Notes under the pieces: model-generated
Database searches by the model: none
Told to the model about the DNA's origin: nothing
The model's input: only the letters and a program-made list of their open reading frames with translations
Translations under genes and position numbers: made by a program
NCBI GenBank assembly: GCA_963976285.1
Contig: CAXBJY010000008.1
Location: 14,414 to 78,413, forward strand
Direction: 5' to 3'
From: an uncultured Gammaproteobacteria bacterium
Lineage (GTDB): Bacteria > Pseudomonadota > Gammaproteobacteria > Ga0077536
DNA: 64,000 nt
Shown: positions 7,085 to 31,161 of the stretch, piece by piece
Layout: each line of letters begins with the position of its first letter
How positions within the stretch are numbered: position 1 is the stretch's first letter

Positions 7085-7447
7085 GATGAAACCGTTGCGT
7101 GGCTCTCGTGGTCGCAGCGTGCAGTATCCGGGCTTCCCGGCGCGACGCCAACTCGTCGTGCCCCGGCCTCGCGACAGTTCGCCAGCGCACGCGAAATTCA
7201 TGAAATAATGAACCGGCAGCGCGGCTTTGTTGTCACGCTAACAGTAGAAGCGGTCGCGAAACGCAATGCGGCGATGCCGGGAGCCGTTTTTCGGCAGTCC
7301 GGGGCATCCCGTGGCCACACGGCGTTTCGCGACCGCTTCCCGACGAAAAAAAGTAAACAAATTCGCCCGGCCGGCAACGGCGGGGCGCGCTGGTTCAGAA
7401 CGGGCGCTTGCGCATCGCCGCAGGCCCACCGAGGTAATGAATTAATC

Positions 7448-12200: not shown

Positions 12201-13116
12201 ACTCGCGGGCGGAGACGAGGGCCTGCATGTCAGCGGCACCCTGAACGTGCCGCGCGTCGCGATCGATGTGAAACGCCTGCCGAGTTCCGCTGTCAGCGTC
12301 TCCGAAGACGAGATTATCGTTGCGAGTGACGACGCCGGGCTTGAAGAAACGGCGAACCGCGGCTTTATGACGGAATCCGTGAGCGGCGATGTCGCGATCC
12401 GGTTTGGCGACGATATTTCCGTCAACGGCTTCGGGCTGACGTCGAAACTTTCCGGGGCGGTCGACTGGAAAAAACGCCGCGGCGAAGCGCTCGGCCGGGC
12501 GTCCGGGAAAATCAGCATCGACGAGGGCGAGTTCAAGGCCTACGGCCAGCAACTCCAGATCGAAAACGGCCGCATCGTGTTCGCCGGGCCGGTCGATAAT
12601 CCGAATCTGAACCTGCGCGCTTACCGGCCGAACCTGGACGTCAAGGCCGGGGTCACGGTGCGCGGTACAGTAAGGGATCCGACAATATCGCTGTTTTCGG
12701 AACCGGTGCAGAGCGACGGGGATACGCTGTCCTACATCGTTACCGGGCGCGCCCTGAGCGATGCCTCGGCCGGTGAGTCATCCATGCTCGCGCAGGCCGC
12801 GTTGAGCCTCGGCGCGGAAGAATCCGCCGCGGTGACGAACCAGATCCGCGGCACGTTCGGACTCGATGAATTTTCCGTGAACGCGGGCACGACGGTTCGG
12901 GACACATCGCTCGTGGCGGGCAAGCGGCTGTCGCCGAAGTTGTCCGTGCGCACGGACTACAACCCGTTCGAACAGCTGTGGACGTTTTTTCTGAATTACA
13001 AACTCACGCCAAACTGGAGCGTCGAGGCGGAATCCGGCGAGCGCCAGGGTGCGGATCTGCTGTACAGCGTCGAGGGCGAAGATCTGATCGAAACGCTGTC
13101 GCCGTTCACGAAATAA
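9247..13116 (+). CDS. tamB: translocation and assembly module protein TamB (DUF490/AsmA-like, 1289 aa)
   Basis: ATGA overlap with tamA. N-terminal TM anchor MMRVRRLLAWTSGLALTIALAVLCAAWYL, a very long beta-rich repetitive body, and conserved C-terminal DUF490-like region (…LNLRAYRPNLDVKAGVTVRGTVRDPTISLFSEP…). Confidence 0.8.
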   Translation: MMRVRRLLAWTSGLALTIALAVLCAAWYLTATEPGSRWLVARALSFTGEHTVRIARIRGRLIDHIELTEAAVDAAGSRVNVSELAFSWSPRALLTGELLIERLRLAGVEVTPPPPSADSERPTAVSIPALPLPGTIRDLTLLRVTIHTPDQAVVIDELSLAANWDRDRMQLTNVILNTGDHRLTADAMLGIGDAARHELTASWRGKLGDDPASATIVAAGPLQALTVELDVDGPLTAQIGGSVRPLEARPGVTLSGRVQAPQTGAAVTFGDIDLGVDGDLAALIVNVSTQAGRAGRDEYTLTASATLGLEATDDASATVSVDWRAVPLTAKLPTVAGHGRFALAGERIALTHTTDAPLATNLAGTVTLGDPTPALDVKLAWQDFVLPLGSGQDIVGRSGTLTAVGTPDALALVIAGSFAGTPVGPVDVDARGHLDSQRLNLETLSARLLDGTIETAGTFDWRGEPTAALRFSGRELDFRRFLAASPSRVGFAGNGTFTAGTNGPRATLELDNVGGELHGHEISGAASLRTSPEAIVVDRARFAAGPNRLTFHGTWSDALDGEFDVALRDLGTLDPRLSGSLTGQGAVGGALLRPRIDAAIAGQGLKFDRFTAADLEANIDIDLARSEASQATLNFSGLTLDGDTLGDVTLRGSGTAAEHHLRLSFDGPQASFETAAQGHLVDDRWFGEVAEFDATSRIAGAWNLSSPSSVSVSGNDAVIADTCFESGAARVCLTASRLPAGGKARVAMTGVPLALADYYLPRTLRLRGALNGDVELVYDDGVLTGAGALAVADGVVMRETAGAVPEQVAIESLAGKFTLAPDAFTAEVQANVERWLDIDGAITTGRAPDAPLTGTFAARATNLVWLAEFAPELAGTDGELELTSTISGSRAAPRGQGRLRLASGALTLPDIGLTIARFDTTFDASPEAIVFDAAFGAGDGELRARGDARKPADGAPWNYTVELGGEDFALVRLPEAEADVSPELKLAGGDEGLHVSGTLNVPRVAIDVKRLPSSAVSVSEDEIIVASDDAGLEETANRGFMTESVSGDVAIRFGDDISVNGFGLTSKLSGAVDWKKRRGEALGRASGKISIDEGEFKAYGQQLQIENGRIVFAGPVDNPNLNLRAYRPNLDVKAGVTVRGTVRDPTISLFSEPVQSDGDTLSYIVTGRALSDASAGESSMLAQAALSLGAEESAAVTNQIRGTFGLDEFSVNAGTTVRDTSLVAGKRLSPKLSVRTDYNPFEQLWTFFLNYKLTPNWSVEAESGERQGADLLYSVEGEDLIETLSPFTK

Positions 13117-13129
13117 CGGCCGCGCTCGC

Positions 13130-13333
13130 TCACCGATCGAATTCGAGTTCGACCACCGGTTGCGTGATCCCGGACGCCGCCTGCGCGTGCCACTCGATAC
13201 ACCATTCGGTGCAGAAGATGAGGTCGGCTTGCTGTTCGGACGCCGACGTGAGGCCGGCGTCGTAAATGAGCACGCCGCAGTTATCACACTTCACGTACTT
13301 TTCGATGTAGTAACCGTTCTCCGCGAAACGCAT
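13130..13333 (-). CDS. 67-aa Cys-rich mini-protein (Zn-ribbon/TRASH-like; acetone-carboxylase-gamma-like partner of hydantoinase B)
   Basis: MRFAENGYYIEKYVKCDNCGVLIYD…ADLIFCTEWCIEW: CxxC … FCxxxC motif. Its ATG overlaps the TGA of the upstream hyuB (TGATG), implying translational coupling. Confidence 0.55.
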   Translation of the reverse strand: MRFAENGYYIEKYVKCDNCGVLIYDAGLTSASEQQADLIFCTEWCIEWHAQAASGITQPVVELEFDR

Positions 13334-15060
13334 CAGCGATGTCCCCCGTCAGGGCCGCCGGCCCCGTAGTCGCGCGCCGCCACCGCGGCGCTGATGAACC
13401 CGTCGTCGACATCCGCGGTCACGCGCGCCGGATCGCGCGCCGCGGGCTCGCCCCAGCCGCCACCACCCGGGGTGAGCAGGCGGATCCGCTCGCCCGAGCG
13501 GATCCTCACGTTCGACCATTTGCTCGTCGAGCGCTTGTTGAAGGCTTCCACCATCGTCTGCCATTCGGTGCCATCGGCAGCCTGGTACAGGGTTTGTCCG
13601 GCCGCGCCGGGCCCGCCGCCTTCGAGGCCCCAGGCCTGGTGGTCATGGCGATCGGTCAGTTGCGTGCACGTAATCTCCGCGTCGAGACAACGCCAGGTCT
13701 TGCTCGTGCCGAGACCGCCGCGGTATTGCCCCGCGCCACCGGAATCGGCGCGCAGGCTGTATTCCTCGGTGAGCCAGGGGTAGCGCGTCTCGAACACTTC
13801 GACCGGGATCACGCGGCAGTTCCCGTTGATCGAATCCGTCGCATTGTTGCCGTCGGCGAACGGCCGCGCGCCCCAGCCGACGACTTCGATGTCGTAGCAC
13901 GCGAAGTATTCGTTGTTCTTGACGTCCTGTCCGCCGAACACGAAATTCAGATGCGTGCCGCCTTCCGCCGCCATGCCGCGCGCCGGATCGGCCTGTGCCA
14001 GCGCGCCGATCACGGTACCGGCGATGCGCGGATGCGCTTCGGTGTTACCGCCGACTTCCGGCGCGGGATAATCGACGTTCACGATCGACCCGCGTGGTGC
14101 GATCACCTTGATCGGGCGGAAGCACCCGGAGTTTTTCGGAATCGACGGATCCGTCAAATGCAGGATCGCGTTGTACGTGGCCGACCACGCCACCCCGAGC
14201 GTCGCGTTGATCGGCCCCGCCACCTGCGGCGTGCTGCCGGTGAAATCGACGACGATGCGCTCGCCGCGTACGTGGCAGTGCGCCTCGATGCGGATCTCGC
14301 TGTCGGACACGCCGTCGTTGTCCATGTAGTCGACGAAGTCGTAGCGGCCGTCCGGGATGTCCGCGATTTCCGCGCGCATGCGCGCTTCCGCGTAGTCCAT
14401 CAGATCCGCGCACGTGCGTTTGAACACATCGATACCGTACTTGCGCACGATCTCGCCGAGACGCTCGGCGCCCTGCTCCACCCCGGCGATCATCGCGCGC
14501 ATATCGCCGTAGTTGTAACGCGGCGTGCGCACGTTCGCGAGCCACAGCTTCCACACTTCCGCGACGTCTTCACCGCGCTTTTTGATCTTCACCGGCGGCA
14601 CCCGGATACCTTCATGGAAAATCTCCGTCGCCTCCGACGGGAAGCCGCCCGGCACCATGCCGCCGACTTCGGCGACGTGGCCGATCGCCACGGTGAACGC
14701 AACGAGTTCATCGTCGACGTAAACCGGACAAAACAACGTGTGTTCCGGCGTATGCAGGCCACCACGGTACGGATCGTTGTGCACGATCACGTCGCCGGGT
14801 TCGATCTCGCTCAAGGGTATTTCCTCGAGACACGAGCGGATCAGCAGCGGCATGCCGCCGATCTGCGCCGGGCAGAATTCCGCCACCGCGAGCATTTCCC
14901 CGATTGGCGAAGCAATACCGCACGTGAAATCGAGCGCTTCATTGAAAATCGTCGAGTACGAGGTTTTCATCAGCGTGATGCCCATTTCGCGACACGCCGA
15001 AATCATCGTGTTCTCGATCACGTTCATCGTCACGAGATCCATCGAAGCGTTTGTGTTCAT
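13333..15060 (-). CDS. hyuB: hydantoinase B / oxoprolinase family protein (HyuB, 575 aa)
   Basis: Met 90 of track ORF 13333..15327, with GGGAGAAGAG SD upstream. MNTNASMDLVTMNVIENTMISACREMG… DPYRGGLHTPEHTLF… typical HyuB. ATGA overlap with hyuA stop. Confidence 0.85.
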   Translation of the reverse strand: MNTNASMDLVTMNVIENTMISACREMGITLMKTSYSTIFNEALDFTCGIASPIGEMLAVAEFCPAQIGGMPLLIRSCLEEIPLSEIEPGDVIVHNDPYRGGLHTPEHTLFCPVYVDDELVAFTVAIGHVAEVGGMVPGGFPSEATEIFHEGIRVPPVKIKKRGEDVAEVWKLWLANVRTPRYNYGDMRAMIAGVEQGAERLGEIVRKYGIDVFKRTCADLMDYAEARMRAEIADIPDGRYDFVDYMDNDGVSDSEIRIEAHCHVRGERIVVDFTGSTPQVAGPINATLGVAWSATYNAILHLTDPSIPKNSGCFRPIKVIAPRGSIVNVDYPAPEVGGNTEAHPRIAGTVIGALAQADPARGMAAEGGTHLNFVFGGQDVKNNEYFACYDIEVVGWGARPFADGNNATDSINGNCRVIPVEVFETRYPWLTEEYSLRADSGGAGQYRGGLGTSKTWRCLDAEITCTQLTDRHDHQAWGLEGGGPGAAGQTLYQAADGTEWQTMVEAFNKRSTSKWSNVRIRSGERIRLLTPGGGGWGEPAARDPARVTADVDDGFISAAVAARDYGAGGPDGGHR

Positions 15061-17093
15061 GTCTCTTCTCCCGCGGCGCCGATCACGAGATGCCCCGTGG
15101 GTGACACCGTCAGCTGTTGCGCAGGACCAATCACGGTCACCGACGCCGCTTCTTCGACGAGCGCCGGACCGGTGAGGGCAAAGCCCGCGCCGAGCGTCGC
15201 CCGGTCGTATACCGGCGTGTCGATCACGTCCTCGCCGAACGCCACTTTGCGCCGCGCCGGCACGGGCGGCGGACGTTCGCCGAGCGACGGGAAACGCGGT
15301 TTCTCGGTCGTTGCGAACACGGTGCATTTAATCGTCGTCATTTCGATCACCTCGTTCGGGATCGCGAAGCCGAAGCGGGCGTCGTGTTTTGCATGGAAGT
15401 CCGCCCACAGGCGGGCGCAGTTCGCCGGGGTGAACTCGTCGAACGCGATCGGTACTTCGAGTTCGTAGTTTTGGCCGAGATAGCGCAGTTCGAGTACGCG
15501 CTGGACGACGAGGTCGGTGTGGTAGCCCTGGCGTTCGAGATCGCGCCGGCCGCTCGCCACGAGATGCTGCAGCACCTCGGTCGCGCGCGCGGCATCGAAA
15601 CGTTGCGAGGTCATATCGATCGTGCGTTCGAGATCGACGCGTGCGTCGGCGAGCGTAAACCCGAGCGCGGAAAACTGGCCCGGATGGATCGGCACGACGG
15701 CCGTCGGAATGCCCGCTTCGCTGATCACCTCGGCCGCGTGCAGTGGCCCCGCCCCGCCGAACGCCATCAGCGAGAAATCCCGCGGGTCGAGTCCGCGCTC
15801 GATCAGCACCGTGCGCAGCGCGCCGACCATGTTCGTATTGACGATGCGGATGATCGCATCGGCCGTTGCGAGTACGGACAGGCCGAGTGGCCCGGCGATC
15901 CCGGCGATCGCCGCCTCGGCGCGATCGCTGGCCAGCGCCATCGTACCGCCGAGGAAATTCTCCGGATTGATCCGCCCGAGCACGACGTTCGCATCCGTCA
16001 CCGTCGGCGCCGTTCCGCCGCGGCCGTAACACGCCGGCCCCGGGTTCGCGCCGGCACTGTGCGGTCCGACGCGCAGCATGCCGCCCTTGTCGATCCACGC
16101 GATCGAACCGCCGCCGGCACCGATCGTGCGGATATCGAGCATCGGGATCTGGATCGGCAGCCCGAACGCGATTTCAAAATTCGTCGTAAACGCAATCTCG
16201 TGCTGCACGATCGTCGAGCAGTCCGTCGACGTGCCCCCCATGTCGAGCGTCACGACATGGTCGCAGTCGAGTTCCTGCGCGACGGCGCGCCCGGCGACGA
16301 TGCCGCCCGTGGGCCCGGAAATCGTTAAATGGATCGGATGTTCCGCCGCGGCCGCCGGGGTCATCTCGCCACCGTTCGATTTGATCATCGCGGTCTCGGC
16401 CCGCACGCCGAGGTCGCGGAAACGCTGCTCCATGTCGCGCAGGTAGCGTTGCAGGATTGGCTTGATATAGGCGTCGGCGATCGTCGTCGAGGCGCGCTCG
16501 AACTCTTTCCACTTCGGCAGCACGTCGAACGAGATCGAAACCGGCACGTCGGGTAGTTCTTCGCGCAGGATGTCGCGCACGCGGCGTTCGTGCACCGGGT
16601 TGACGTAGGAGAACAGCAGGTTGACCGCGATCGCCTCGATATCGCCGGCGGCGCGGATGGCGGCGGCGACGTCACGCACGCTCGCTTCGTCCAGCGGTGT
16701 GTACACCTCGCCGGTGCTGAGCAGACGTTCGGTGATTTCGAAACAGTGCCGGCGCGCGACGAGCGGCTCAATGCGCGACCAGGTGCGATCGTAGTGATGC
16801 TCGCGGTGCCCGCGCTGCAGAAACGGGATGTCGCGGAAACCGGCGGTCGTGACGTAGGCAACGCGGGCGCCCTTGCGTTCGAGGATCGCGTTCGTCGCGA
16901 CCGTCGTGCCGACGCGGAGATTGTCGATCGCGGACGGCTCGGCGATACGGCCAAGACCGGCGAGGATGCCGGCGGTCGGATCATCCGGGGTGGTCAGGTT
17001 TTTCCAGACGTCGATCGTCCGGGTGTCCTTGTCGTAGGCAACGAAGTCGGTGAACGTGCCGCCGACGTCCACCCCAAGTAAATAGGCCGGCAT
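15057..17093 (-). CDS. hyuA: hydantoinase A / oxoprolinase family protein (HyuA, 678 aa)
   Basis: MPAYLLGVDVGGTFTDFVAYD… (actin-like ATPase fold N-terminus), LDMGGTSTDCSTI, and other conserved hydantoinase A motifs. Confidence 0.85.
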   Translation of the reverse strand: MPAYLLGVDVGGTFTDFVAYDKDTRTIDVWKNLTTPDDPTAGILAGLGRIAEPSAIDNLRVGTTVATNAILERKGARVAYVTTAGFRDIPFLQRGHREHHYDRTWSRIEPLVARRHCFEITERLLSTGEVYTPLDEASVRDVAAAIRAAGDIEAIAVNLLFSYVNPVHERRVRDILREELPDVPVSISFDVLPKWKEFERASTTIADAYIKPILQRYLRDMEQRFRDLGVRAETAMIKSNGGEMTPAAAAEHPIHLTISGPTGGIVAGRAVAQELDCDHVVTLDMGGTSTDCSTIVQHEIAFTTNFEIAFGLPIQIPMLDIRTIGAGGGSIAWIDKGGMLRVGPHSAGANPGPACYGRGGTAPTVTDANVVLGRINPENFLGGTMALASDRAEAAIAGIAGPLGLSVLATADAIIRIVNTNMVGALRTVLIERGLDPRDFSLMAFGGAGPLHAAEVISEAGIPTAVVPIHPGQFSALGFTLADARVDLERTIDMTSQRFDAARATEVLQHLVASGRRDLERQGYHTDLVVQRVLELRYLGQNYELEVPIAFDEFTPANCARLWADFHAKHDARFGFAIPNEVIEMTTIKCTVFATTEKPRFPSLGERPPPVPARRKVAFGEDVIDTPVYDRATLGAGFALTGPALVEEAASVTVIGPAQQLTVSPTGHLVIGAAGEET

Positions 17094-19695: not shown

Positions 19696-20532
19696 GTGCA
19701 CCGGCTTTCCGATCGGAACGCCAGGCACACTGATCTTGCGCGAGCGACGGCACGTACCTTTCAGGTGACAACAGCAAACGAACAAAACCGCGCCGCGGTG
19801 ATCCAGGGCGCGAGCCGTGGCATCGGTCTGGCGCTCGTGCGCGCGCTGCTTGCCGATCCGCACAACGACCGCATCGTGGCGAGCTGCCGCGATCCGGCCG
19901 CTGCATCGGCATTGCGCGACCTGCAACGTGCAAATCCGCGGCGTCTCGACATCGTCGCGCTCGACGTCACCCGCGAAGACTCCGTGCGCGCGGCGGCGGC
20001 GCGCACGGCGGAACGCGTCGATACGGTGTCGTTACTGATCAATTGCGCCGGCCTACTGCACGGCGATCACTTCGAACCGGAGCGCCGGCTGGCCGATGTT
20101 GACCCGGAACACCTGCAGCGGCTGTTTGCGGTCAATGCGTTCGGCCCGCTGCTCGTCGCAAAACACTTCGCTGCGCTGTTCCCGCGCCAGCAGCGCGCCG
20201 TGCTCGCGAACGTGTCCGCGCGGGTCGGCAGCATTGGCGATAATGCGCTCGGTGGCTGGTACGGCTACCGCGGGTCGAAAGCCGCGCAAAATATGTTCAC
20301 GCGCAACCTCGCGATCGAACTGAAGCGCAGGCATCGCGGTATCATTTGCGTCGCGCTGCACCCCGGCACCGTCGACACGGATCTGTCGCAACCGTTCCAG
20401 CGCGGGGTGCCGGCGCACAAACTGTTCCCGGCGGCGCGCGCCGCGGCGCAGTTGCTCGCCGTGATCGACGGCCTGGGTCCGTCCGCCAACGGCGGTTTCT
20501 ACGCCTGGGATGGATCGGAAATCGAATGGTAA
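19696..20532 (+). CDS. SDR family oxidoreductase (CsgA/C-factor-like short-chain dehydrogenase); start uncertain (track GTG 19696; alternative GTG 19765)
   Basis: …AAVIQGASRGIGLALVRALL (TGxxxGxG), …YGYRGSKAAQNMFTRNLAIEL (YxxxK catalytic pair). Confidence 0.7.
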   Translation: MHRLSDRNARHTDLARATARTFQVTTANEQNRAAVIQGASRGIGLALVRALLADPHNDRIVASCRDPAAASALRDLQRANPRRLDIVALDVTREDSVRAAAARTAERVDTVSLLINCAGLLHGDHFEPERRLADVDPEHLQRLFAVNAFGPLLVAKHFAALFPRQQRAVLANVSARVGSIGDNALGGWYGYRGSKAAQNMFTRNLAIELKRRHRGIICVALHPGTVDTDLSQPFQRGVPAHKLFPAARAAAQLLAVIDGLGPSANGGFYAWDGSEIEW

Positions 20533-21106: not shown

Positions 21107-22102
21107 TCACGACTGCCGGCTCTGCAGTTTGGCCGGCAACGCGATGCCCTCGTACTCGGCGACTTCGATCAGGGCGTGTTCGAAGATCTCGCGCGCCGCG
21201 CTCGTCGTGCGGCGCAGCTTCGCGTGCAACACGGCGTCCTCGTCGTTGCGGTTCTCACACTCCGCGCTGTACGCCTCGAATTGAGTCAGGGTGCGCACGA
21301 TGTCCACGAGATGATGCGGGCATTCGCATTGCACCGCCGGCGCCGCGTTCGCCAGCATTTCCAGTAGCGCATCGTCGAGAATCCGCGGCACCACGGTATC
21401 GGGCAAGCCGCGGTCGGGCGCCGCGCGCGGCGGCAGGGGCCGCGCGAGTTCCCGCCCGAGCTGGTAGCTGTCGGCCGGCGAGCGCAACGTGACGATCCCG
21501 TCGCGCGCGAGGTCGGCGAGCACGTCGGCAGGCGCGAAGCCGTAAATCACGACCGTCCGCTTCGCCGCCGTCTGCGCATGCAGTTGCCGGATCTGTCGCG
21601 CGCGGTTGCGCAGCAATGCGGCGACGTCGATCACGAGCGCGTCGGGCAGCGTGCGCAACGCTTCGGCTTCGAATTCGGGCCAGCTGCGACAGTGCGCTCT
21701 CACGGTCATGTCATCGAACGACGGATGGCCGGCCGGCAGGAGCGATTCGCGAGACTCACTGAACACAACGGCATCGGCGATCCCGGGCGACGCGGCGGCG
21801 CCGTCGGTGTGCTGGTCCTCGTGATGCAACTGCGTCAGTTCATCGAGTTCCGCCCGGCTCAGATTCGCGACCGAACTGATCGCGTGACCGCTGCCAATGA
21901 GCCGTTTGATTAGCTTTAACCGCTCGACATCGTCACTGCTGTACAAGCGCGCCGCGCTGCCGGTGCGCTGCGGCGAGACGACCTGGTAACGGCGCTCCCA
22001 CGCCCGCAGCGTGTCCACCGGGATCTGCGTAATGCGCGATACAGCGCCGATTTTGAACCGGGAACCGTCGTCCGGGTTTTCGTTCTCCGTGTCTTTGACC
22101 AT
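21107..22102 (-). CDS. MerR family transcriptional regulator with ~250-aa C-terminal domain of unknown function
   Basis: N-terminal HTH FKIGAVSRITQIPVDTLRAWERRYQVVSPQRTGSAARLYSSDDVERLKLIKRL = MerR-type. Divergent from the HiPIP operon promoter. Confidence 0.75.
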   Translation of the reverse strand: MVKDTENENPDDGSRFKIGAVSRITQIPVDTLRAWERRYQVVSPQRTGSAARLYSSDDVERLKLIKRLIGSGHAISSVANLSRAELDELTQLHHEDQHTDGAAASPGIADAVVFSESRESLLPAGHPSFDDMTVRAHCRSWPEFEAEALRTLPDALVIDVAALLRNRARQIRQLHAQTAAKRTVVIYGFAPADVLADLARDGIVTLRSPADSYQLGRELARPLPPRAAPDRGLPDTVVPRILDDALLEMLANAAPAVQCECPHHLVDIVRTLTQFEAYSAECENRNDEDAVLHAKLRRTTSAAREIFEHALIEVAEYEGIALPAKLQSRQS

Positions 22103-22221
22103 GTTGTTCGTTTCCTCACGTTATCCGGTGCTGTCCGGCACTCGCGGCGGTGTACACCGCGAGTGCGCAGTCGCGATCAGGCGATTCCTCGCAGGGATGA
22201 ATATAACGACCGAACTATTAA

Positions 22222-22280
22222 TTGAACAGTGCAAAGCATTGACATACCGTTCGAGCTTGTCTATATTTTGCACTGTTCAT
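22222..22280. promoter_or_regulatory. inverted pair of a 15-nt motif (TTGAACAGTGCAAAG at 22222-22236; TTTTGCACTGTTCAT at 22266-22280) bracketing the promoter: candidate operator
   Basis: Reverse complement of the second copy is ATGAACAGTGCAAAA. Copy 1 abuts the -35; copy 2 overlaps the -10 and predicted TSS. The same motif recurs at 25785-25829. Confidence 0.45.
22239..22267 (+). promoter_or_regulatory. consensus sigma70-type promoter TTGACA-17 bp-TATATT driving the small-ORF/HiPIP operon
   Basis: TTGACA at 22239-22244, 17-nt spacer, TATATT at 22262-22267, in a locally AT-rich intergenic region about 37 nt upstream of the ATG at 22304. Confidence 0.55.
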
Positions 22281-22303
22281 AACATATACAAAAGGACGCG
22301 CAC

Positions 22304-22405
22304 ATGAAAATCGCTCTGCACACGACCCGCCTCAACATTGTCAGCCTCGTCGCGATCGCGCCATTAGGCGTGCTTTCGGCGTTCGCCATCGTCGGCACCC
22401 TGTAA
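22304..22405 (+). CDS. 33-aa hydrophobic small ORF (MKIALHTTRLNIVSLVAIAPLGVLSAFAIVGTL); putative membrane mini-protein or leader peptide
   Basis: AAGGA SD 7 nt upstream of ATG, between promoter and HiPIP gene. Below the ORF-track size cutoff. Predicted single TM helix. Confidence 0.35.
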   Translation: MKIALHTTRLNIVSLVAIAPLGVLSAFAIVGTL

Positions 22406-22438: not shown

Positions 22439-22813
22439 ATGATAGACAAAACCCGTGCAACCGCATCGGCGACGACGCTTCGGTCGCGCCGCGACGCGTT
22501 GAAGAAAACAGCCGCCCTGGGTGCCGGACTCGTGCTCGGCGCCGGCCTCGCGACGCACCGCCGCGCCGCGGCGACGGAGCTGCCGCAACTCGCCGAAGAC
22601 CATCCGCAGGCGATCGCGCTCGGCTATCGCCACGACGCGGCAACCGTCGACCCGGTGAAATATCCGACCGCCGATGCGGCGTCGAAGAACTGCGCGAACT
22701 GCCAGTTGTTCCAGGCCGACGGCGATTCCGCCTGGGGCGGGTGTCCACTGTTCGCCGGCAAGGCGGTTAACGCGCAGGGCTGGTGCACCGCCTGGGTCAA
22801 GCGGGTCGGCTAG
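22439..22813 (+). CDS. high-potential iron-sulfur protein (HiPIP) with twin-arginine (Tat) signal peptide
   Basis: SRRDALKKTAALGAGLVLGAGLA (Tat motif); mature domain with CANCQLF…GGCPLF…GWCTAW, the four-Cys HiPIP [4Fe-4S] signature. Confidence 0.85.
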   Translation: MIDKTRATASATTLRSRRDALKKTAALGAGLVLGAGLATHRRAAATELPQLAEDHPQAIALGYRHDAATVDPVKYPTADAASKNCANCQLFQADGDSAWGGCPLFAGKAVNAQGWCTAWVKRVG

Positions 22814-22822
22814 GAGAGCAAC

Positions 22823-22984
22823 ATGGAACTGATTACGCCTGTTCGTGATTGCGGCGGTGCCGCGTGGCAATGGCTGCAGCGGCTCGCCGGCCCGCATGAA
22901 CGGATCTGTCGCCATCGGGAGTGGACGAAGTTCGGCACGTACTCGGAGCAGATGCTGTGTCGTCTGCTCGATGACCTGTGCTGA
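22823..22984 (+). CDS. 53-aa Cys-rich hypothetical protein
   Basis: MELITPVRDCGGAAWQWLQRLAGPHERICRHREWTKFGTYSEQMLCRLLDDLC. GGAGAG SD immediately after the HiPIP stop codon (TAG-GAGAGCAAC-ATG). Four Cys. Below ORF-track cutoff. Confidence 0.45.
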   Translation: MELITPVRDCGGAAWQWLQRLAGPHERICRHREWTKFGTYSEQMLCRLLDDLC

Positions 22985-23933: not shown

Positions 23934-24968
23934 ATGGCCAGTGTAGCGATAGCAGGCGCCGGCATCGCCGGTATCAGCGCCGCCCGGGCGCTGCGGCAGG
24001 ATGGATACAGGATCACCCTGTTCGACCGCGGGCGACGTCTCGGTGGACGCGCCTGCTCGCGACGGACGGGTGGCGGTTACGATCACGGCGCGCAGTACTT
24101 CACCGTCTCCGACCCGGCATTCGCACGCGCACTCGCGCCGCACATGCGCAGCGGCGCGGTCGCGCCGTGGCACGGACGCGTCGTGCGCAGCGTCGGCGGG
24201 CAACTGCACGAGTTCGACGCGCGCCGCTATGTCGGGGTCCCGGGTATGGGTCGCCTCGCCGAAGTGCTGGCGCAAGACTGCGAAGTTTTGACCGACACCC
24301 GAGTCACCGTGGCTGAGCAAGGCGCACGCGGCTGGTCGCTCGTCGACGCGGACGGTTCGGAACTCGGCGAATACGATGTGCTGCTGCTCGCGATGCCGCC
24401 GGAACAGGCGAGCGCGCTGACACCGCGCGATTGCCCGTTGCGCGAGACCTTGCGCGCCTGTCGCTCGCAACCCGCGTGGGCCGCGCTGCTTCAATTCGCC
24501 GAGCGCCTGCCGCTCGATTTTGACGGCGCGACGTTCGATCGGCTCGACCTTGCCTGGGCGGCGCGCGACTCGGGCAAACCGGGCCGTGAACCGGGTGAAC
24601 GCTGGGTCGTGCATGCCGCCGCGGAATGGTCGCGGGAGCGGTTCGGGGCCGCACCCGAGCGGGTGGCGGCAGAACTCGCCAGCGCATTGTTCACCGCCAC
24701 CGCTCTCGATCCACGCGAGACGACAGCGATGTCCGCGCACCGCTGGGGCTTCGCGCGGGTCGGGAACGGACCGGCTTGTGGCGCGTTATGGGACGAACAC
24801 CTGCGCCTCGGGATTTGCGGCGACTGGTGTGTCAGCCCGCGTATCGAAGGCGCCTGGCTGAGCGGGGTCGAAGCCGCCGCGCAAATCCGCGCAAGCGTCG
24901 GTCGGCCACGACGGCGAACCGCGAAAACCGCCGCCGTCACGCCTGGCGACGAGGCAGCGCTGACATGA
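23934..24968 (+). CDS. NAD(P)/FAD-dependent oxidoreductase (amine-oxidase/renalase-like fold)
   Basis: Met 63 of track ORF 23748..24968 with AGGAG SD. MASVAIAGAGIAGISAARALRQDGYRITLFDRGRRLGGR (dinucleotide-binding motif). Confidence 0.7.
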   Translation: MASVAIAGAGIAGISAARALRQDGYRITLFDRGRRLGGRACSRRTGGGYDHGAQYFTVSDPAFARALAPHMRSGAVAPWHGRVVRSVGGQLHEFDARRYVGVPGMGRLAEVLAQDCEVLTDTRVTVAEQGARGWSLVDADGSELGEYDVLLLAMPPEQASALTPRDCPLRETLRACRSQPAWAALLQFAERLPLDFDGATFDRLDLAWAARDSGKPGREPGERWVVHAAAEWSRERFGAAPERVAAELASALFTATALDPRETTAMSAHRWGFARVGNGPACGALWDEHLRLGICGDWCVSPRIEGAWLSGVEAAAQIRASVGRPRRRTAKTAAVTPGDEAALT

Positions 24969-25759
24969 GCAAGGCCGACACGAAACCGTTCTCCGCCAGC
25001 GTCGATATGAACGAAGTGGCGTACTACGCGCAGCGCGCGCACACGTGGTGGGACGAACACGGCCCGTTCTGGCCGCTGCACCGACTGAACGCGCTGCGCG
25101 TCGACTACCTGAAGCGCGAACTCGCGACCGCGTTCGATCGCAACCCCGATTCGCCACAACCGCTCGCGGATCTCGAGGTACTCGACGTCGGCTGCGGTGG
25201 CGGCCTGCTTGCCGAAGCGATGGCGGCCCTCGGTGCGCGCGTGCACGGTATCGACGTCGTCGAGGGCAATATCCTCACGGCGCGCCATCATGCCCGCTCC
25301 CGGCCGTACCGCATCACTTATGACATAACGACGATCGAGGAACTCGCGCGCGGGACGCAACGCTACGATGTCGTGTTGACGCTCGAAGTGGTCGAGCACG
25401 TGGCGGACCTGGCGGGCTTCATGGCCGCCTGCACGCGGGTCGTGAAACCCGGCGGTATCCTCGCCGTCGCCACGATCAACCGCACGTGGCGGTCGTGGCT
25501 GTTCGCGATCGTGGGCGCGGAATATGTCCTGCGCTGGCTCCCGCGCGGGACGCATCAATGGCGCAAATTCGTGCGCCCCCGGTTCCTGCGGCAATTACTC
25601 GACGCACACGGGTTCGAGGTGTTCGCCGCGCGCGGCGTGCGCATCAATCCACTGAACCGGCGGTTTTCGACCACGAGTGATCTCAGCGTGAACTACATGC
25701 TGCTCGCCACCCGCACGAACGCAGCGGTTTCCCCGATCGCAACCGGCACAACACAGTGA
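24965..25759 (+). CDS. ubiG: ubiquinone biosynthesis O-methyltransferase UbiG (3-demethylubiquinone 3-O-methyltransferase)
   Basis: Met 114 of track ORF 24626..25759; ATGA overlap with the upstream gene. …LEVLDVGCGGGLLAEAMAALGARVHGIDVVE… (SAM-binding motif I), DVVLTLEVVEHVADL, VKPGGILAVATINRT. Confidence 0.8.
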   Translation: MSKADTKPFSASVDMNEVAYYAQRAHTWWDEHGPFWPLHRLNALRVDYLKRELATAFDRNPDSPQPLADLEVLDVGCGGGLLAEAMAALGARVHGIDVVEGNILTARHHARSRPYRITYDITTIEELARGTQRYDVVLTLEVVEHVADLAGFMAACTRVVKPGGILAVATINRTWRSWLFAIVGAEYVLRWLPRGTHQWRKFVRPRFLRQLLDAHGFEVFAARGVRINPLNRRFSTTSDLSVNYMLLATRTNAAVSPIATGTTQ

Positions 25760-25784
25760 TCCGGAATTCCCGAATGCACGTATG

Positions 25785-25829
25785 TTGAACAGTGCAAATA
25801 TTGTTCACACGATTTGAACAGTGTTGCAA
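25785..25829. promoter_or_regulatory. second occurrence of the TTGAACAGTG(C)AAA motif (two direct copies) upstream of the fasciclin gene
   Basis: TTGAACAGTGCAAAT (25785-25799) and TTGAACAGTGTTGCAA (25814-25829), with TGAACA/TGTTCA inverted half-sites in between. In the ubiG-fasciclin intergenic region. Confidence 0.4.
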
Positions 25830-25900
25830 CGATAAACCGAACCGGCCAATGCCGGCCCGGTACGCCACCTGGTCCTTAATGAATGGAGTTTGCGAGTCTG

Positions 25901-26416
25901 ATGAAACTGAAAACCCTGATCACCACCGCGTTCCTCGCCGCCGCCACCGTGACGAGCGCCCACGCGGAAAACCATGGTCACCATCACATGGCGACCCCGG
26001 CGCAGCAGAACATCGTTGAAATTGCCGCCACGAACGACAGCTTCAAGACGCTTACCGCCGCGGTCACCGCCGCCGGGCTTGCCGACACGCTGCAGGGCGC
26101 GGGACCGTTTACGGTCTTCGCCCCGACCGACGCGGCGTTTGCCGCACTGCCGGCGGGCACGCTCGAGAACTTGTTGAAGCCTGAGAACAAGCAGCAGCTC
26201 GCCGCGATCCTCACCTACCACGTCGTGCCGGGTGCCGTCATGGCACAAGACGTCGTCGGCCTCAGTGAAGCGGCGACCGTCCACGGCAACAGTCTTGCCA
26301 TCAGTGTGATCGACGGTGCCGTCGTGATCGACGACGCGCGGGTCGTGTCGACGGACATCAAGGCATCGAACGGGGTCATTCACGTGATTGACAAAGTCAT
26401 GCTGCCGAAATCCTGA
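25901..26416 (+). CDS. fasciclin (FAS1) domain-containing secreted protein
   Basis: Met 7 of track ORF 25883..26416. [22 protein letters not shown] signal peptide; [15 protein letters not shown]…TYHVVPG…[13 protein letters not shown] (FAS1 H1/H2 boxes). Confidence 0.8.
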
Positions 26417-27008: not shown

Positions 27009-29111
27009 ATGAGTTACATCGTCGCGACGGATGTGGGGGGTACCTGCACCGACACGGTGATCGCATCCGATGACGGCCACATCGAAATCGGCAAAGTGCT
27101 GTCGACCCCGCCGCAGTTCGCGAACGGGGTGCTCGATTCCGTGCGCACGACGGCCGCCGCGATGGGCCTGACGCTCGAGCAACTGCTCGCCGACACGCGG
27201 CTGTTCGTCCACGGCTCGACCGTCGTCGACAATATCCTGCTGACACACAGCGGCACGGCAACGGCGCTGCTGACGACCGCGGGCTTCGAGGATACGCTGC
27301 GCGTCACCCGCGGCGCCTACGGCCGCTGGGCCGGCCTGCCCGAAGACCAGGTGAAGCATCCGGTCGCCACGGACCGCCCGCCGCCGCTCGTCGATATCGC
27401 CGATGTCGTGGGGATCCGTGAACGCATCGATTACCAGGGCGCGGTGGTCGAAGCCCTCGATGAAGTCGCCGCGGAGGCCGCGATCCGCGAATTGCTCGCC
27501 GATGACCGGATCGGCGCGGTCGCGATTTGCCTGTTGTGGTCGTTCCGCAATCCCGCGCATGAAACGACGCTGCGCGACCTCGTACGACGGATCGCACCGG
27601 ATTGTTTCGTCTGCACGTCCGCCGACATCGCGCCGCTGCCGGGCGAATACGAACGCACCTCGACGACCGTGATCAACGCTTACGCCGGCACGGAAACGCA
27701 GCGCTACGTCGAACAGCTGCAGGCGCAACTGCAGGCCGCGGGCTACACCGGGCCGCTGCTCGTGATGCAGGGACACGGCGGGCTCGCGAATGCCCGCGAC
27801 GCCGCGGTCCGCGCCGTGTCGATGATCGAATGCGGTCCCGTCGCCGGTCTCATCGGCAGCCGCCATCTCGGCGAATTGCTCGACGATCGCAGCATCATCG
27901 CCGTCGACATTGGCGGCACGACATCGAAAGTCGGCGTGATCCGCGACGGCGCGCTCGAATACGCGCGCGAACCGATGGTCAACCGCTATCACTATCTCGG
28001 ACCGAAAATCGAAGTCGCCTCGATCGGCGCCGGCGGCGGCAGCATCATCACGCTCGAGGCGGATTCGCTCGCGCCGCGGGTGGGGCCGAAAAGCGCCGGC
28101 GCGAGCCCGGGTCCCGTGTGTTACGGCCGCGGCGGCGAACAGATCACGCTGACCGACGTCCTGCTGCTCGCCGGTTACATGGATCCCGGGCAGTTCCTCG
28201 GCGGTCGCATGCGTCTCGACCTCGAGCGTTGCCGCAGCGAGTTCGCGCGCCAAATCGCCGACCCGCTCGGCATGAGCATCAGCGAAGCCGCGTTCGGGAT
28301 TTTCCGGGTCGCGGCGTCGCAGTTGACGGATCTGATCCACGAGATCACGGTCGAACGCGGGCTCGACCCGCGCGATTATTCGCTGCACGCGTTCGGCGGG
28401 ACGTGTCCGATGCTCGCCGGCGTGTTCGGCGCGGAGCTGAACGTCGCGCGCATCGTCGTGCCGTACACCGCGGCGGTGAACTGCGCGTTCGGCCTCGCCG
28501 CGTCCGACGTCGTGCACGAAATGGCGCTGCCGGTGCTCGTGCCGTTACCGGTCGATCCCGACGCGTTGAACCGGGAATTCGCGCCGCTCGTCGAACGCGG
28601 ACGCGCGGCACTCGCGAGCGAGGGATTCGAGCCCGGGCGGATCCGCATCGAATGCGCCGCGGCGCTGCGCTACGGTTTGCAGGTGCACGAAATCATCACC
28701 CCGCTCGACGTCACCCCGCCGCTCGATGGCGCCGCGCTCGAGCGCCTCGCGGCGACGTTCGAAGCGCTGTACGAACAGCGCTACGGCGCCGGTTCGGCCT
28801 ACCGCGAAGCGGGGATCGAAATCACCGGGCTGCGCGTGACCGCGCGCGGCTTGCTGGAACGTCCGCAATTCGTCACCCGCGACGTCGCCGGGCCGGATTC
28901 CACCGCCGCACAGATCGGTCGCCGCGCGATCTTCGTCGAGGCGGCCAACGATTTCGTCGACTCGCCGATTTACGATTTCACGCAGTTGCTGCCCGGCAAC
29001 GTCGTCGCCGGCCCCGCCGTTATCCACACGCCGGTGACGACGATCGTCGTGCAAGGCGACCAGGTCGCGCGCATCGATGCGACCCTGAACACGATCATCG
29101 AACGGGCCTGA
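27009..29111 (+). CDS. hyuA: hydantoinase A / oxoprolinase family protein (second copy, 700 aa)
   Basis: MSYIVATDVGGTCTDTVIASDD…, IAVDIGGTTSKVGVI…; paralogous to the 15057..17093 gene. Confidence 0.85.
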   Translation: MSYIVATDVGGTCTDTVIASDDGHIEIGKVLSTPPQFANGVLDSVRTTAAAMGLTLEQLLADTRLFVHGSTVVDNILLTHSGTATALLTTAGFEDTLRVTRGAYGRWAGLPEDQVKHPVATDRPPPLVDIADVVGIRERIDYQGAVVEALDEVAAEAAIRELLADDRIGAVAICLLWSFRNPAHETTLRDLVRRIAPDCFVCTSADIAPLPGEYERTSTTVINAYAGTETQRYVEQLQAQLQAAGYTGPLLVMQGHGGLANARDAAVRAVSMIECGPVAGLIGSRHLGELLDDRSIIAVDIGGTTSKVGVIRDGALEYAREPMVNRYHYLGPKIEVASIGAGGGSIITLEADSLAPRVGPKSAGASPGPVCYGRGGEQITLTDVLLLAGYMDPGQFLGGRMRLDLERCRSEFARQIADPLGMSISEAAFGIFRVAASQLTDLIHEITVERGLDPRDYSLHAFGGTCPMLAGVFGAELNVARIVVPYTAAVNCAFGLAASDVVHEMALPVLVPLPVDPDALNREFAPLVERGRAALASEGFEPGRIRIECAAALRYGLQVHEIITPLDVTPPLDGAALERLAATFEALYEQRYGAGSAYREAGIEITGLRVTARGLLERPQFVTRDVAGPDSTAAQIGRRAIFVEAANDFVDSPIYDFTQLLPGNVVAGPAVIHTPVTTIVVQGDQVARIDATLNTIIERA

Positions 29112-29115
29112 ATCC

Positions 29116-31161
29116 ATGGATCCGATCACGTTTTCGATCATTCGCCACCGCCTGTTCCGGATCGTCGACGAGGCCGTGATCACGCTGAAGAACGTGTCCG
29201 GCAGCGCGATCACGAACGAGGGTCACGACCTCATGGTGTCGCTGTACCGCGCGGACGGTTCGCTGCTCATGGGCGGGGTCGGATTCCTGCACCATCTCAC
29301 GAGCGCCGCCGAGGCCTGCCAGTCGATCATCCGTCGCTTCAAGGGTCGCATCGAACCCGGTGACGTCTACCTGCTGAACGATCCGTACACCGCCGCGCTG
29401 CACACCTCGGACGTGTATCTCGTGGCCCCGATCCACGTCGGCGACGAACTCGTCGCCTGGAGCGCGTGTTTCGTCCACGTCTACGACATCGGGGCGAAGA
29501 ATCCCGGCGGTTTCTGCCCCGATGCCGACAGCATTTATATCGAGGGCTTCAGCTCGCCGGGGATCCGCCTCGTGCGGCGCGGCGAAATCAACCGCGACGT
29601 GTTCGATACGCTCATGAACATGGTGCGCTCGCCGGAAATGGTCGCGCTCGACATCTCCTCGATGATCGCGTGCAACAACGTCGCCCGCGAACGCATGGTC
29701 GCGCTCGTCGAGAAATACGGCGCCGCGACCGTCGACGCCGCGTGCTCGGCCCTGATCGAGAATTCCGAAACGAAACTGCGCGAACGCCTGCGGAGCCTGC
29801 CGGACGGCCAGTGGCGCTCGCGCCAGTACCTGAACGTCGGCGAGGACATCTCGCGCATTTGCCTCACGATGACGAAGCGCGACGACGAACTGCACTTCGA
29901 TTTCACGGGTTCGAGCGCGCAGAGCCCGTATGCCGTGAACTGCACGCAATGGGCCTCGCTCGGCGGCCTGTTCGCGCCGCTGTTCCCGCTGCTGTGTTAC
30001 GACATCACGTGGAACGAAGGCGTGATCCGGCCGATCCGCATGACCGCCCCGGCCGGTTCGATCGTGAACTGCACGCGCCCGGCGCCGGTGTCCGTCGCCA
30101 CGGTCGGCGCGATCCAGTCCGTGAACAATGCCGCGTGCGCGACGATCGGCAAGCTGCTCGCCACGAGCGATGAGTACCGGCGCGAAGCGACGGCGGTGTG
30201 GCATGCGAACCATTTCGCGATATTCAAATTCGGCCGCAACCAGCACGGGCGTGATGCGATCGGGATCCTGACGGAAACGTTCGCCGGCGCCGGCGGCGCG
30301 CGCACGTTCGCCGACGGGATCGATGTCGGCGGCGAGATCCCGAATCCGATTTCACGCATGGCTAATGTTGAAACGATCGAAAACCTGTTTCCGATCCGCT
30401 ACCGCTATCGCCGCCTCAGAACGGATTCCGGCGGCGCCGGACGCTATCGCGGCGGCGCCGGTATGGAACTCGCGATCACGGCGCACGATGCGCCGGACGG
30501 CGGCATCCACTACGTCGTCTCCGGCAAGGGCGCAGCGTTCCCGATGAGCGACGGCCTCGGCGGCGGCTACCCGGGCGCGCCGAACGCGTATTACTGGCAC
30601 GCCGCGGACGGTACGACGCAAGCCGTGGACTGGGGCGTATTTCCGCTGTTCGGCGAGGACGCGCTCGAAGTGCGCTGGAATGGCGGCGGCGGGGTTGGTG
30701 ACCCGTTGCAGCGCGACCCGCGCGCCGTGGCCCGCGACGTCACGGCCGGCCTCGTGTCCGGCGATGCCGCGCGCGAGTTGTACGGGGTCGTCATCGCGGG
30801 CGCGGACGTCGATGCCGCGGCGACGACGGCGGCCCGGGCCGCGATCCGCGCCAGCCGGCTCGGCGGCACCGCACCGGAGGCGAACGACCCAGTCCCTGAT
30901 GCCGCGATCGTCTTCGATGGCAAAACGGTTGCCTGCGCCGCCTGCGGGCAGCATCTCGCCGATCCGGGCAGCGCGTGGAAGACCGCTGCGCGGCAGGTCG
31001 CACGCACGATGTCCGGCGTGATACCCGCCTATACGACGATCGCGGCGGTGAGCTTGCGCGAATTCGTCTGCCCGGGCTGCGCCACCGTGCTCGACACCGA
31101 AACCGTGTGCGACAACGATCCCCCCTTACTCGATTACCTTGGAGTCATTCCCGATGCATGA
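29116..31161 (+). CDS. hyuB: hydantoinase B family protein (second copy, 681 aa) with ~100-aa C-terminal Zn-ribbon-like extension
   Basis: MDPITFSIIRHRLFRIVDEAVITLKN…DPYTAALHTSDVYL… = HyuB. The tail …GKTVACAACGQHLADPGSAWK…REFVCPGCATVLDTETVCD carries CxxC…CxxC, absent from the 575-aa paralog. Confidence 0.85.
   Translation: MDPITFSIIRHRLFRIVDEAVITLKNVSGSAITNEGHDLMVSLYRADGSLLMGGVGFLHHLTSAAEACQSIIRRFKGRIEPGDVYLLNDPYTAALHTSDVYLVAPIHVGDELVAWSACFVHVYDIGAKNPGGFCPDADSIYIEGFSSPGIRLVRRGEINRDVFDTLMNMVRSPEMVALDISSMIACNNVARERMVALVEKYGAATVDAACSALIENSETKLRERLRSLPDGQWRSRQYLNVGEDISRICLTMTKRDDELHFDFTGSSAQSPYAVNCTQWASLGGLFAPLFPLLCYDITWNEGVIRPIRMTAPAGSIVNCTRPAPVSVATVGAIQSVNNAACATIGKLLATSDEYRREATAVWHANHFAIFKFGRNQHGRDAIGILTETFAGAGGARTFADGIDVGGEIPNPISRMANVETIENLFPIRYRYRRLRTDSGGAGRYRGGAGMELAITAHDAPDGGIHYVVSGKGAAFPMSDGLGGGYPGAPNAYYWHAADGTTQAVDWGVFPLFGEDALEVRWNGGGGVGDPLQRDPRAVARDVTAGLVSGDAARELYGVVIAGADVDAAATTAARAAIRASRLGGTAPEANDPVPDAAIVFDGKTVACAACGQHLADPGSAWKTAARQVARTMSGVIPAYTTIAAVSLREFVCPGCATVLDTETVCDNDPPLLDYLGVIPDA

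Follow-up and report, generated by a model that had tools for sequence, protein, structure and literature searches.

Regulators of the CarA, CarH and LitR type, which belong to the MerR family, are the described systems closest to the one reported here. CarA and CarH repress sigma-A promoters through large operators (about 55 bp for CarA) that are occupied by two dimers or a tetramer and overlap the -35 element, the -10 element or both, each CarH DNA-binding domain contacting an 11-bp unit of the form nAnnTnnACAn (PMC8156234). Class II LitR proteins of Pseudomonas (PplR1/PmlR2) are repressors with two sites at each near-consensus sigma-70 promoter, one overlapping the -35 element and one downstream of the transcription start (PMC9758184). 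Class III LitR proteins are presented, in the passages of PMC9758184 and PMC6739363 that deal with them, as B12-independent members of the LitR/CarH family that occur mainly in Burkholderia and have a C-terminus matching no known domain; the same passages report that the absorption spectrum of recombinant class III LitR shifts in light. The class III LitR of Burkholderia multivorans was described by Sumi et al. 2018 (J Bacteriol 200:e00285-18), as referred to in the corresponding passage of PMC9758184. Here we describe a conserved motif, TTGMAC-N-GTKCAA, that brackets the promoter (P_hip) of an operon for a high-potential iron-sulfur protein (HiPIP) in a stretch of 64,000 nucleotides (nt) from an uncultured Gammaproteobacteria bacterium (contig CAXBJY010000008.1). 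The whole stretch is called the window, and the coordinates of motif, promoters and genes refer to it. With a probability of roughly 0.7, judged by sequence comparison, the motif serves as operator for the LitR-like repressor encoded next to it, which would control P_hip, a fasciclin gene further downstream and its own promoter.

The window contains exactly three copies of the 13-mer TGAACAGTGCAAA, at 22223-22235 (+), 22267-22279 (-) and 25786-25798 (+), against no match in 100 dinucleotide-preserving shuffles of the window, which served as the chance expectation. No further TGAACAGTGCAAA site appeared in the window when up to two mismatches were permitted. Read directly from the sequence, the two copies that bracket the promoter, as the original prediction had described them, are TTGAACAGTGCAAAG at 22222-22236 and TTTTGCACTGTTCAT at 22266-22280. 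Three of the four copies claimed there are thus present, whereas the fourth (25814-25829) matches in its first 10 bases only (TTGAACAGTG). Every site is by itself a pseudo-palindrome of 13 bp, TTGMAC-N-GTKCAA, so that the division into direct and inverted copies, also made there, carries no meaning. The first two sites belong to a longer dyad with arms at 22223-22244 and 22258-22279, of 22 nt each and 86% complementary. In the window the motif is confined to intergenic promoter DNA, and the promoter region has a G+C content of 48.5% against about 66% around it. These counts put the motif well outside what chance would give, and its conservation in evolution marks it as a real candidate binding site.

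A near match with two mismatches was noticed at 19921-19933 (CTGCAACGTGCAA), within the coding region of a short-chain dehydrogenase/reductase (SDR); it was dropped as a chance occurrence, as it lies in coding DNA and is not kept in the relatives L083, L084 and L087. Within the window, the motif is not a frequent coding-region repeat. A scan of metagenome contigs for the 14-mer TTGAACAGTGCAAA yielded at least 120 stretches and is uninformative either way, chance matches being expected in so large a collection; among the matches listed (at least 120), none had a regulator, hip or fasciclin context, and none had TTGACA next to it. Neither Rfam families nor tRNAs were found when the window was scanned for them.

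The elements recognized around P_hip are as follows.

22222-22234, no strand: operator site 1 (predicted), TTGAACAGTGCAA, a 13-bp pseudo-palindrome and exact repeat that abuts the -35 element of P_hip
22239-22267, plus strand: core promoter P_hip, with TTGACA at 22239-22244, a 17-bp spacer and TATATT at 22262-22267
22268-22280, no strand: operator site 2 (predicted), TTGCACTGTTCAT, which begins directly after the -10 element and covers the expected transcription start, predicted near 22274
22223-22279, no strand: dyad-symmetric operator region of 57 bp, an inverted repeat enclosing the -35 and -10 elements
22286-22291, no strand: half-site-like element ATACAA (xxxCAA), 11 bp past the right half of site 2
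22200-22228, minus strand: inferred promoter of the regulator gene, with -35 TGTTCA at 22228-22223 within site 1, a 17-bp spacer and -10 TATATT at 22205-22200; start predicted near 22193

P_hip was the sole sigma-70-like match in a consensus scan of 7 kb of the window (20.5-27.5 kb) and agrees with the consensus at 11 of 12 positions. The conserved sites overlap or abut its -35 element, its -10 element and its predicted start, as is typical of a repressor operator. The segment 22281-22291 (AACATATACAA) matches the CarH repeat consensus nAnnTnnACAn. This consensus, taken from PMC8156234 for the scan of the window, fits three positions there, at offsets -20 (+), +18 (-) and +42 (+) from the -35 element, and each of these offsets recurs in three to five of eight aligned sequences, window included (+42 in five of the eight). 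Such matches at fixed offsets suggest a link between the operator and the CarH repeat. Two palindromes and an extra unit in a 57-bp dyad around a promoter with a 17-bp spacer would fit the logic of CarA, CarH and LitR repressors.

The eight sequences are the window and seven metagenomic relatives (Tara Oceans scaffolds matching the window), whose regulators are 85, 84, 69, 54, 52, 49 and 51% identical to that of the window (47-85% overall). Their intergenic alignment has no gap between site 1 and site 2, and conservation is distributed over the elements in the following way.

Site 1: mean identity 0.90 in all eight; 7 of 13 columns invariant (13 of 13 in the closest four)
-35 element: mean identity 1.00 in all eight; 6 of 6 columns invariant, TTGACA in every sequence
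17-bp spacer: mean identity 0.56 in all eight; 0 of 17 columns invariant
-10 element: TAnnnT kept in all eight; 3 of 6 columns invariant
Site 2: mean identity 0.80 in all eight; 4 of 13 columns invariant (10 of 13 in the closest four)

The repressor-type placement of sites over the -35 and -10 elements, which the original prediction had pointed out, is therefore kept in the seven relatives together with hexamers and spacings, while the spacer sequence diverges; a comparison of the motif near hip/coq7 homologues, recommended at the same time, gives this result for site 1, the -35 element, the -10 element and site 2 alike. The site pair reads TTGAACAGTGCAA and TTGAACTGTTCAT in relative L083, and TTGAACAGTGCAA and TTGCACTGTGCAA in L084. 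The variants of the two sites are independent of each other and non-compensatory, all staying within TTGMAC-N-GTKCAA, which argues for protein-binding palindromes rather than base-paired arms. The dinucleotide CA of the half-site-like element at 22286-22291 is invariant in all eight sequences. In all seven close relatives the regulator gene is directly divergent from this promoter, and in all relatives the promoter is followed by a small open reading frame (ORF) and/or the HiPIP gene. Next come, in most relatives (L083-L090 and L092), the genes for a DCC-COQ7 fusion and an FAD oxidase, often with UbiG and fasciclin genes.

On the strand of the regulator, every one of the eight sequences has a TAnnnT at a distance of exactly 17 bp from the TGKKCA of site 1, and the inferred -10 element contains invariant T/TA columns. 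Site 1 overlaps the -35 element of this inferred promoter, and autoregulation is predicted on that ground. A perfect GC-rich inverted repeat of 10 bp (GCACTCGCGG and CCGCGAGTGC, 9 nt apart) was observed at 22138-22166, where the 5' leader of the regulator mRNA is predicted to lie.

The gene that reads away from P_hip is the following.

21107-22102, minus strand: regulator of the MerR family, 331 amino acids, divergent from P_hip

Only the N-terminal helix-turn-helix of this protein matches Pfam: residues of about 15-99 form a winged helix of the MerR/CarH-LitR type (PF13411, 2.9e-16), for which MlrA and CarH are the best NCBIfam matches. A profile of 110 family members found its best PDB matches in CarH (5c8d, 1.4e-15), LitR of T. 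thermophilus (3whp, 1.6e-15) and CarA (2jml, 3e-14), and gave weak matches to receiver domains for residues of about 100-240. The AlphaFold2 model (predicted local distance difference test, pLDDT, 89) consists of the winged helix, an alpha/beta domain and a helical C-terminal domain, the middle domain (about 110-220) being five-stranded and receiver- or flavodoxin-like. With this model, the top whole-chain Foldseek matches were CarH structures (best the DNA-bound 5c8e), followed by receiver domains. The winged helix is thus of the CarH/LitR/CarA subtype that defines the broad LitR/CarH family. The B12-binding module of class I LitR/CarH is missing, as no B12-binding Pfam domain was found in the regulator at E<=0.01. 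The string DQHTDG (residues 96-101) was considered as a B12 His motif and rejected, since it lies within a low-confidence, non-conserved linker. By description, the protein agrees with class III LitR in its LitR-type helix-turn-helix, the lack of a B12 motif and a C-terminus unlike known domains. The original prediction had named the divergent MerR-family protein as the nearest candidate regulator; its CarH/LitR-type DNA-binding domain and the joint occurrence of motif and divergent gene in all eight sequences make it the likely one.

The helical C-terminal domain (residues of about 236-331, encoded at 21107-21400, with its helical part placed at about 244-330) carries the strongest conservation of the family, with C259, E260, C261, P262, F275, E276, Y278, C282 and H293 invariant and H264 kept in at least 90% of the sequences (110 family members). 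The C-terminal 95 residues have no Pfam match. Modelled alone (pLDDT 92), the domain resembles only generic helical bundles, with no specific fold match. A profile of the domain, run against 1.84 billion cluster representatives, retrieved 1,334 proteins at E<=0.001; the best 150 of the 1,334 matches carry the domain at the C-terminal end, and most of these proteins have about 320-340 amino acids. The four invariant Cys and His residues of the domain form a candidate site for sensing a metal or cofactor.

In the mechanism that we propose, the repressing state would be an oligomer (two dimers or a tetramer, as in CarA/CarH) on site 1 and site 2. Bound upstream of the -35 element at site 1 and over the end of the -10 element and the start at site 2, it would exclude RNA polymerase from P_hip, and by covering the -35 element of the divergent promoter at site 1 it would repress its own gene. 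On receipt of the signal the protein would leave the DNA and repression would be relieved. We infer the binding of the regulator to the sites, the repression, the oligomeric state and the signal from the features described above. The operon under P_hip would comprise the small ORF, HiPIP, the 53-amino-acid ORF, DCC-COQ7, FAD oxidoreductase and UbiG genes, and the third copy of the motif would govern the fasciclin gene. These targets and the sites near them are listed below.

22304-22405, plus strand: small hydrophobic ORF of 33 amino acids, first cistron, MKIALHTTRLNIVSLVAIAPLGVLSAFAIVGTL; called as a gene in relatives
22439-22813, plus strand: HiPIP with a twin-arginine translocation (Tat) signal (PF01355, 3.8e-23; TAT signal match)
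22823-22984, plus strand: ORF of 53 amino acids with four Cys; no family match, found only in L081-L088
22978-23916, plus strand: DCC1-like thiol-disulfide oxidoreductase fused to a COQ7-type di-iron hydroxylase (PF04134, PF03232); start at 22978 or 23020
23934-24968, plus strand: FAD-dependent, amine-oxidase-like oxidoreductase (family match)
24965-25759, plus strand: UbiG-type O-methyltransferase (TIGR01983, 1.6e-78, above the curated cutoff)
25785-25797, no strand: operator site F1 (predicted), TTGAACAGTGCAA, exact copy 104 nt 5' of the fasciclin start codon
25814-25829, no strand: degenerate second element, TTGAACAGTGTTGCAA, exact repeat of 10 nt only
25901-26416, plus strand: fasciclin-domain protein with signal peptide (PF02469, 7e-41); start revised to ATG 25901

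Relatives with regulators of 49-85% identity keep the peptide of the small ORF (...VAIAPL..L..FA..G.L*); a genuine small membrane protein is likely on prediction. The 53-amino-acid ORF is sometimes called longer, at 104 amino acids, in L081-L088, and the DCC1-like/COQ7 fusion is also present in relatives. Site F1 is exact in L087 and differs at one or two positions in L083 and L085, with the flanks GCACGTAT-n-site-ATAT kept. The second element at 25814-25829 is partly or loosely kept in L083 and L085 and absent in L087, and a function for it is doubtful. The longest fasciclin ORF starts at 25883; a GGAGTT-N9-10-ATG conserved in relatives, together with the signal peptide, places the true start at ATG 25901, which gives 171 amino acids as in relatives. 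The small regulon that the original prediction had envisaged (HiPIP/Coq7 operon plus fasciclin protein) agrees with the retention of the fasciclin site and with the position of the regulator gene, which in very distant bacteria, too, reads divergently from genes for HiPIP, DCC-COQ7, FAD oxidase or fasciclin.

Between site F1 and the fasciclin start, a GC-rich hairpin was observed at 25836-25861 (ACCGAACCGGCCAATGCCGGCCCGGT), and hairpins occupy the same place in L083, L085 and L087; it could be the ubiG terminator or a leader structure. Outward-facing pairs of hydantoinase A/B (oxoprolinase-like) genes at 13333-17093 (-) and 27009-31161 (+) flank a block of about 10 kb, which holds the regulator and its targets together with epimerase, FAD-binding, SDR and PNPOx genes. 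L083 shows this arrangement as well, and the block may have been inserted between paralogous hydantoinase operons. At 5975-13116 lie genes for TamA-like (Omp85/POTRA) and TamB-like components of the translocation and assembly module, unrelated to the motif.

The likely signal was judged from the gene neighbourhoods of the family. In 80 genome loci with distant regulator homologues (27-54% identical over the best-matching segment), genes within 6 kb of the regulator, often directly divergent from it, were counted.

FAD oxidase: 17 of 80 loci
Photolyase: 16 of 80 loci
DCC/COQ7: 15 of 80 loci
Fasciclin: 13 of 80 loci
HiPIP: 11 of 80 loci
DUF2256: 11 of 80 loci
UbiG: 6 of 80 loci
Extracytoplasmic function (ECF) sigma factor: 6 of 80 loci
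folE: 5 of 80 loci

Photolyase genes also flank the regulators of the 54%- and 52%-identical relatives. Candidates for cultured bacteria that have the family beside such target genes are Aquabacterium sp. G14, Achromobacter animicus LMG 26690, Noviherbaspirillum sp. 1P10PC and Massilia spp. Homologues in Burkholderiaceae (Burkholderia anthina, B. arboris and Caballeronia) are 31-33% identical over 94-98% of the length, and their genes belong to, or adjoin, clusters with photolyase, cfa, folE and ECF sigma genes. In B. anthina the regulator is surrounded by genes for cyclopropane-fatty-acid (CFA) synthase, DUF2256, GTP cyclohydrolase I, an ECF sigma factor, SDR, an FAD oxidoreductase, DUF2878, photolyase and fasciclin; the FAD oxidoreductase and the fasciclin protein of the window are 35% and 51% identical, respectively, to those of this light cluster. 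In Caballeronia the homologue precedes folE, SDR and sigma factor genes, with a gene for photoactive yellow protein (PYP) nearby. On the strength of these neighbourhoods, light or photo-oxidative stress is the more likely signal, with about an even chance.

A second arrangement was seen in the 69%-identical relative (L087/L088, 7330-13005), where the regulator is followed by an operon of major facilitator superfamily (MFS), CFA synthase, DUF1365 and amine oxidase genes. A divergent ECF sigma/ChrR-like pair, typical of a singlet-oxygen regulon, lies beside this cfa operon. TTGMAC-N-GTKCAA was found neither at the cfa-operon genes nor at the ECF sigma/ChrR genes of L087/L088, and two light or photo-oxidative circuits therefore appear to lie side by side.

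Several points weigh against a light-responsive LitR-like repressor acting at these sites. The regulator is assigned to them by adjacency and co-conservation, and its description as class III LitR-like would rest on a Burkholderia homologue of about 33% identity. The palindrome centres of sites 1 and 2 are 46 bp apart, which is a non-integral number of helical turns. Distant homologues (in L001-L080, e.g., L039, L079, L074, L072, L016 and L022) carry other upstream repeats, among them TTGAC/TTGAA units at 11-bp spacing, such as TTGACTCTGATTTGACGCCGATTAT, and TTGTC-N3-GACAA palindromes; the exact motif is no general feature of the regions 5' of the 27-54% identical homologues, and TTGMAC-N-GTKCAA was not found in the upstream regions of Burkholderia anthina. 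The operator architecture, this suggests, has shifted within the regulator family. The remaining points concern the signal, and they are those that would be expected if the same operator and regulator responded not to light but to redox state, oxygen, iron or another metal, which we regard as the main alternative, though a rather unlikely one. Cys259, Cys261, Cys282 and His293 (with His264) would then bind a metal or an Fe-S centre; once this centre was oxidised or lost, the repressor would leave the DNA, and a periplasmic electron carrier would be induced together with late ubiquinone-pathway enzymes. The invariance of these residues across the 110 family members fits such a sensor equally well, as does a C-terminal domain that matches neither Pfam nor a specific fold; the targets are redox proteins (HiPIP, di-iron COQ7, DCC thiol oxidoreductase and FAD oxidase), and photolyase, folE and cfa genes are absent from the window. 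Within the MerR family, a C-terminal Cys cluster has a precedent in SoxR. The wider neighbourhoods, however, are dominated by genes for the response to light or singlet oxygen (photolyase in 16 of the 80 loci, with folE, DUF2256, cfa and ECF sigma/ChrR), and a light-altered absorption spectrum is reported for Burkholderia class III LitR in the passage of PMC9758184 on that class. Photo-oxidative stress and redox sensing are mutually compatible.

Other explanations dispense with the repressor itself. It is improbable that another transcription factor encoded elsewhere, e.g., a global regulator, binds the motif and that the MerR-like neighbour is coincidental. Several distant homologue loci do lack the exact motif, and the TTG...CAA palindromes loosely recall boxes of the FNR/CRP type; the FNR/CRP box, however, is TTGAT-N4-ATCAA, 14 bp long with TTG-N8-CAA, whereas the sites in the window are 13 bp long with TTG-N7-CAA. 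Consensus sites of FNR/CRP, LexA, Fur, PpsR (TGT-N12-ACA) and class II LitR were ruled out by spacing and sequence. The motif and the divergent regulator gene moreover occur together in all eight sequences, site 1 covers part of the promoter of the regulator itself with a constant 17-bp geometry, and the neighbourhood in the relatives examined holds no second conserved regulator gene. For a classical MerR-type activator that remodels the promoter, the family membership and the divergent gene arrangement could be cited, and site F1 could sit in the spacer of a weak promoter (ATGCAC-16-AAATAT, 25774-25801). Classical MerR operators (MerR, CueR, SoxR) are single dyads in a spacer of 19-20 bp and activate by distortion of the DNA. 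P_hip, by contrast, combines a consensus -35 element with an optimal 17-bp spacer, so that no distortion is needed, and the palindromes at 22222-22234 and 22268-22280 lie outside this spacer, in line with the argument already made against spacer distortion. The DNA-binding domain is, in addition, of the CarH/LitR/CarA type, whose members are repressors (PMC8156234, PMC9758184), and activation is accordingly very improbable. Hardly credible, finally, is a non-regulatory origin of the repeats as a small dispersed repeat, a cruciform or an RNA hairpin. The two 22-nt arms could pair, but their changes are non-compensatory, and the first arm lies upstream of the predicted start and hence outside the hip mRNA. 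The repeats occupy only syntenic promoter positions and are kept where the flanking DNA has diverged, with no Rfam match and, in coding DNA of the window, no copy beyond the non-conserved two-mismatch match at 19921.

The repressor reading of P_hip invokes a conventional principle, i.e., occlusion of a sigma-70 promoter with autoregulation from a divergent promoter; the main interest lies in the uncharacterised sensor domain and in the unusual, widely conserved target set. HiPIP and the COQ7- and UbiG-type enzymes of late ubiquinone synthesis among the products suggest a response that acts on periplasmic electron transfer and the membrane quinone pool. For the poorly studied B12-independent branch of the LitR/CarH family, the locus offers a precise predicted operator (two TTGMAC-N-GTKCAA sites plus a half-site) and a promoter map, and it links this branch to HiPIP, DCC-COQ7, FAD oxidoreductase, UbiG and fasciclin as an unexpected set of targets. 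For the sensing site, the four invariant Cys and His residues suggest themselves. A more far-reaching, speculative and on balance unlikely reading would be that, in a widespread LitR-like group (about 1,300 clusters at 50% identity), light or photo-oxidative stress is sensed by a previously undescribed metal or cofactor centre of the Cys3-His type, placed in a helical domain that is itself new. In a non-phototroph marine lineage the group would then switch on a dedicated module for remodelling redox chemistry in membrane and periplasm, made up of the small membrane peptide, the periplasmic HiPIP, DCC-COQ7, the FAD oxidase, UbiG and fasciclin. If true, light would be linked by regulation to the quinone pool, and the photoreceptor chemistry would be of a new type. 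Compact promoter-operator cassettes of the LitR/CarH family, under tight repression, have served as light switches in Streptomyces (PMC11519972), and the P_hip cassette may have practical value of the same kind.

Among the known systems, the classical MerR activators share with the window the winged-helix fold and the divergent layout of regulator and target, and SoxR resembles the regulator further in its C-terminal Cys cluster; the 17-bp spacer and the sites outside it set P_hip apart from them. The best match to the DNA-binding domain is provided by CarH, CarA and class I LitR (PDB 5C8D/5C8E, 3WHP and 2JML), which are photoreceptor repressors dependent on adenosylcobalamin (AdoB12), and the CarA operator of about 55 bp is close in size to the 57-bp dyad of the window. 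The regulator differs from these proteins in lacking the four-helix bundle and Rossmann B12 module, in place of which its sensor part has a receiver-like alpha/beta domain and a Cys/His helical domain; its predicted operator consists of 13-bp palindromes, whereas those of the CarH/CarA class are purely tandem direct repeats. Class II LitR is similar in the two-site repressor layout, but its site is TGTACA-N12-TGTACA, unlike TTGMAC-N-GTKCAA, the four-helix bundle is kept, and in P. mendocina a partner LOV protein is needed, while no LOV gene was seen in the window. The Burkholderia class III regulon comprises photolyase, CFA synthase and folate synthesis functions, to which the small ORF, HiPIP, DCC-COQ7 and UbiG of the predicted window regulon are not known to belong, and the identity to the Burkholderia homologues is only about 33%. 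Class III LitR nevertheless shares with the window regulator the MerR/CarH-type N-terminal domain, the lack of a B12 motif and the unmatched C-terminus; it is described as a repressor-type light regulator, as proposed here for the protein at P_hip, and the light clusters of Burkholderia and Caballeronia also hold homologues of the FAD oxidase and fasciclin of the window.

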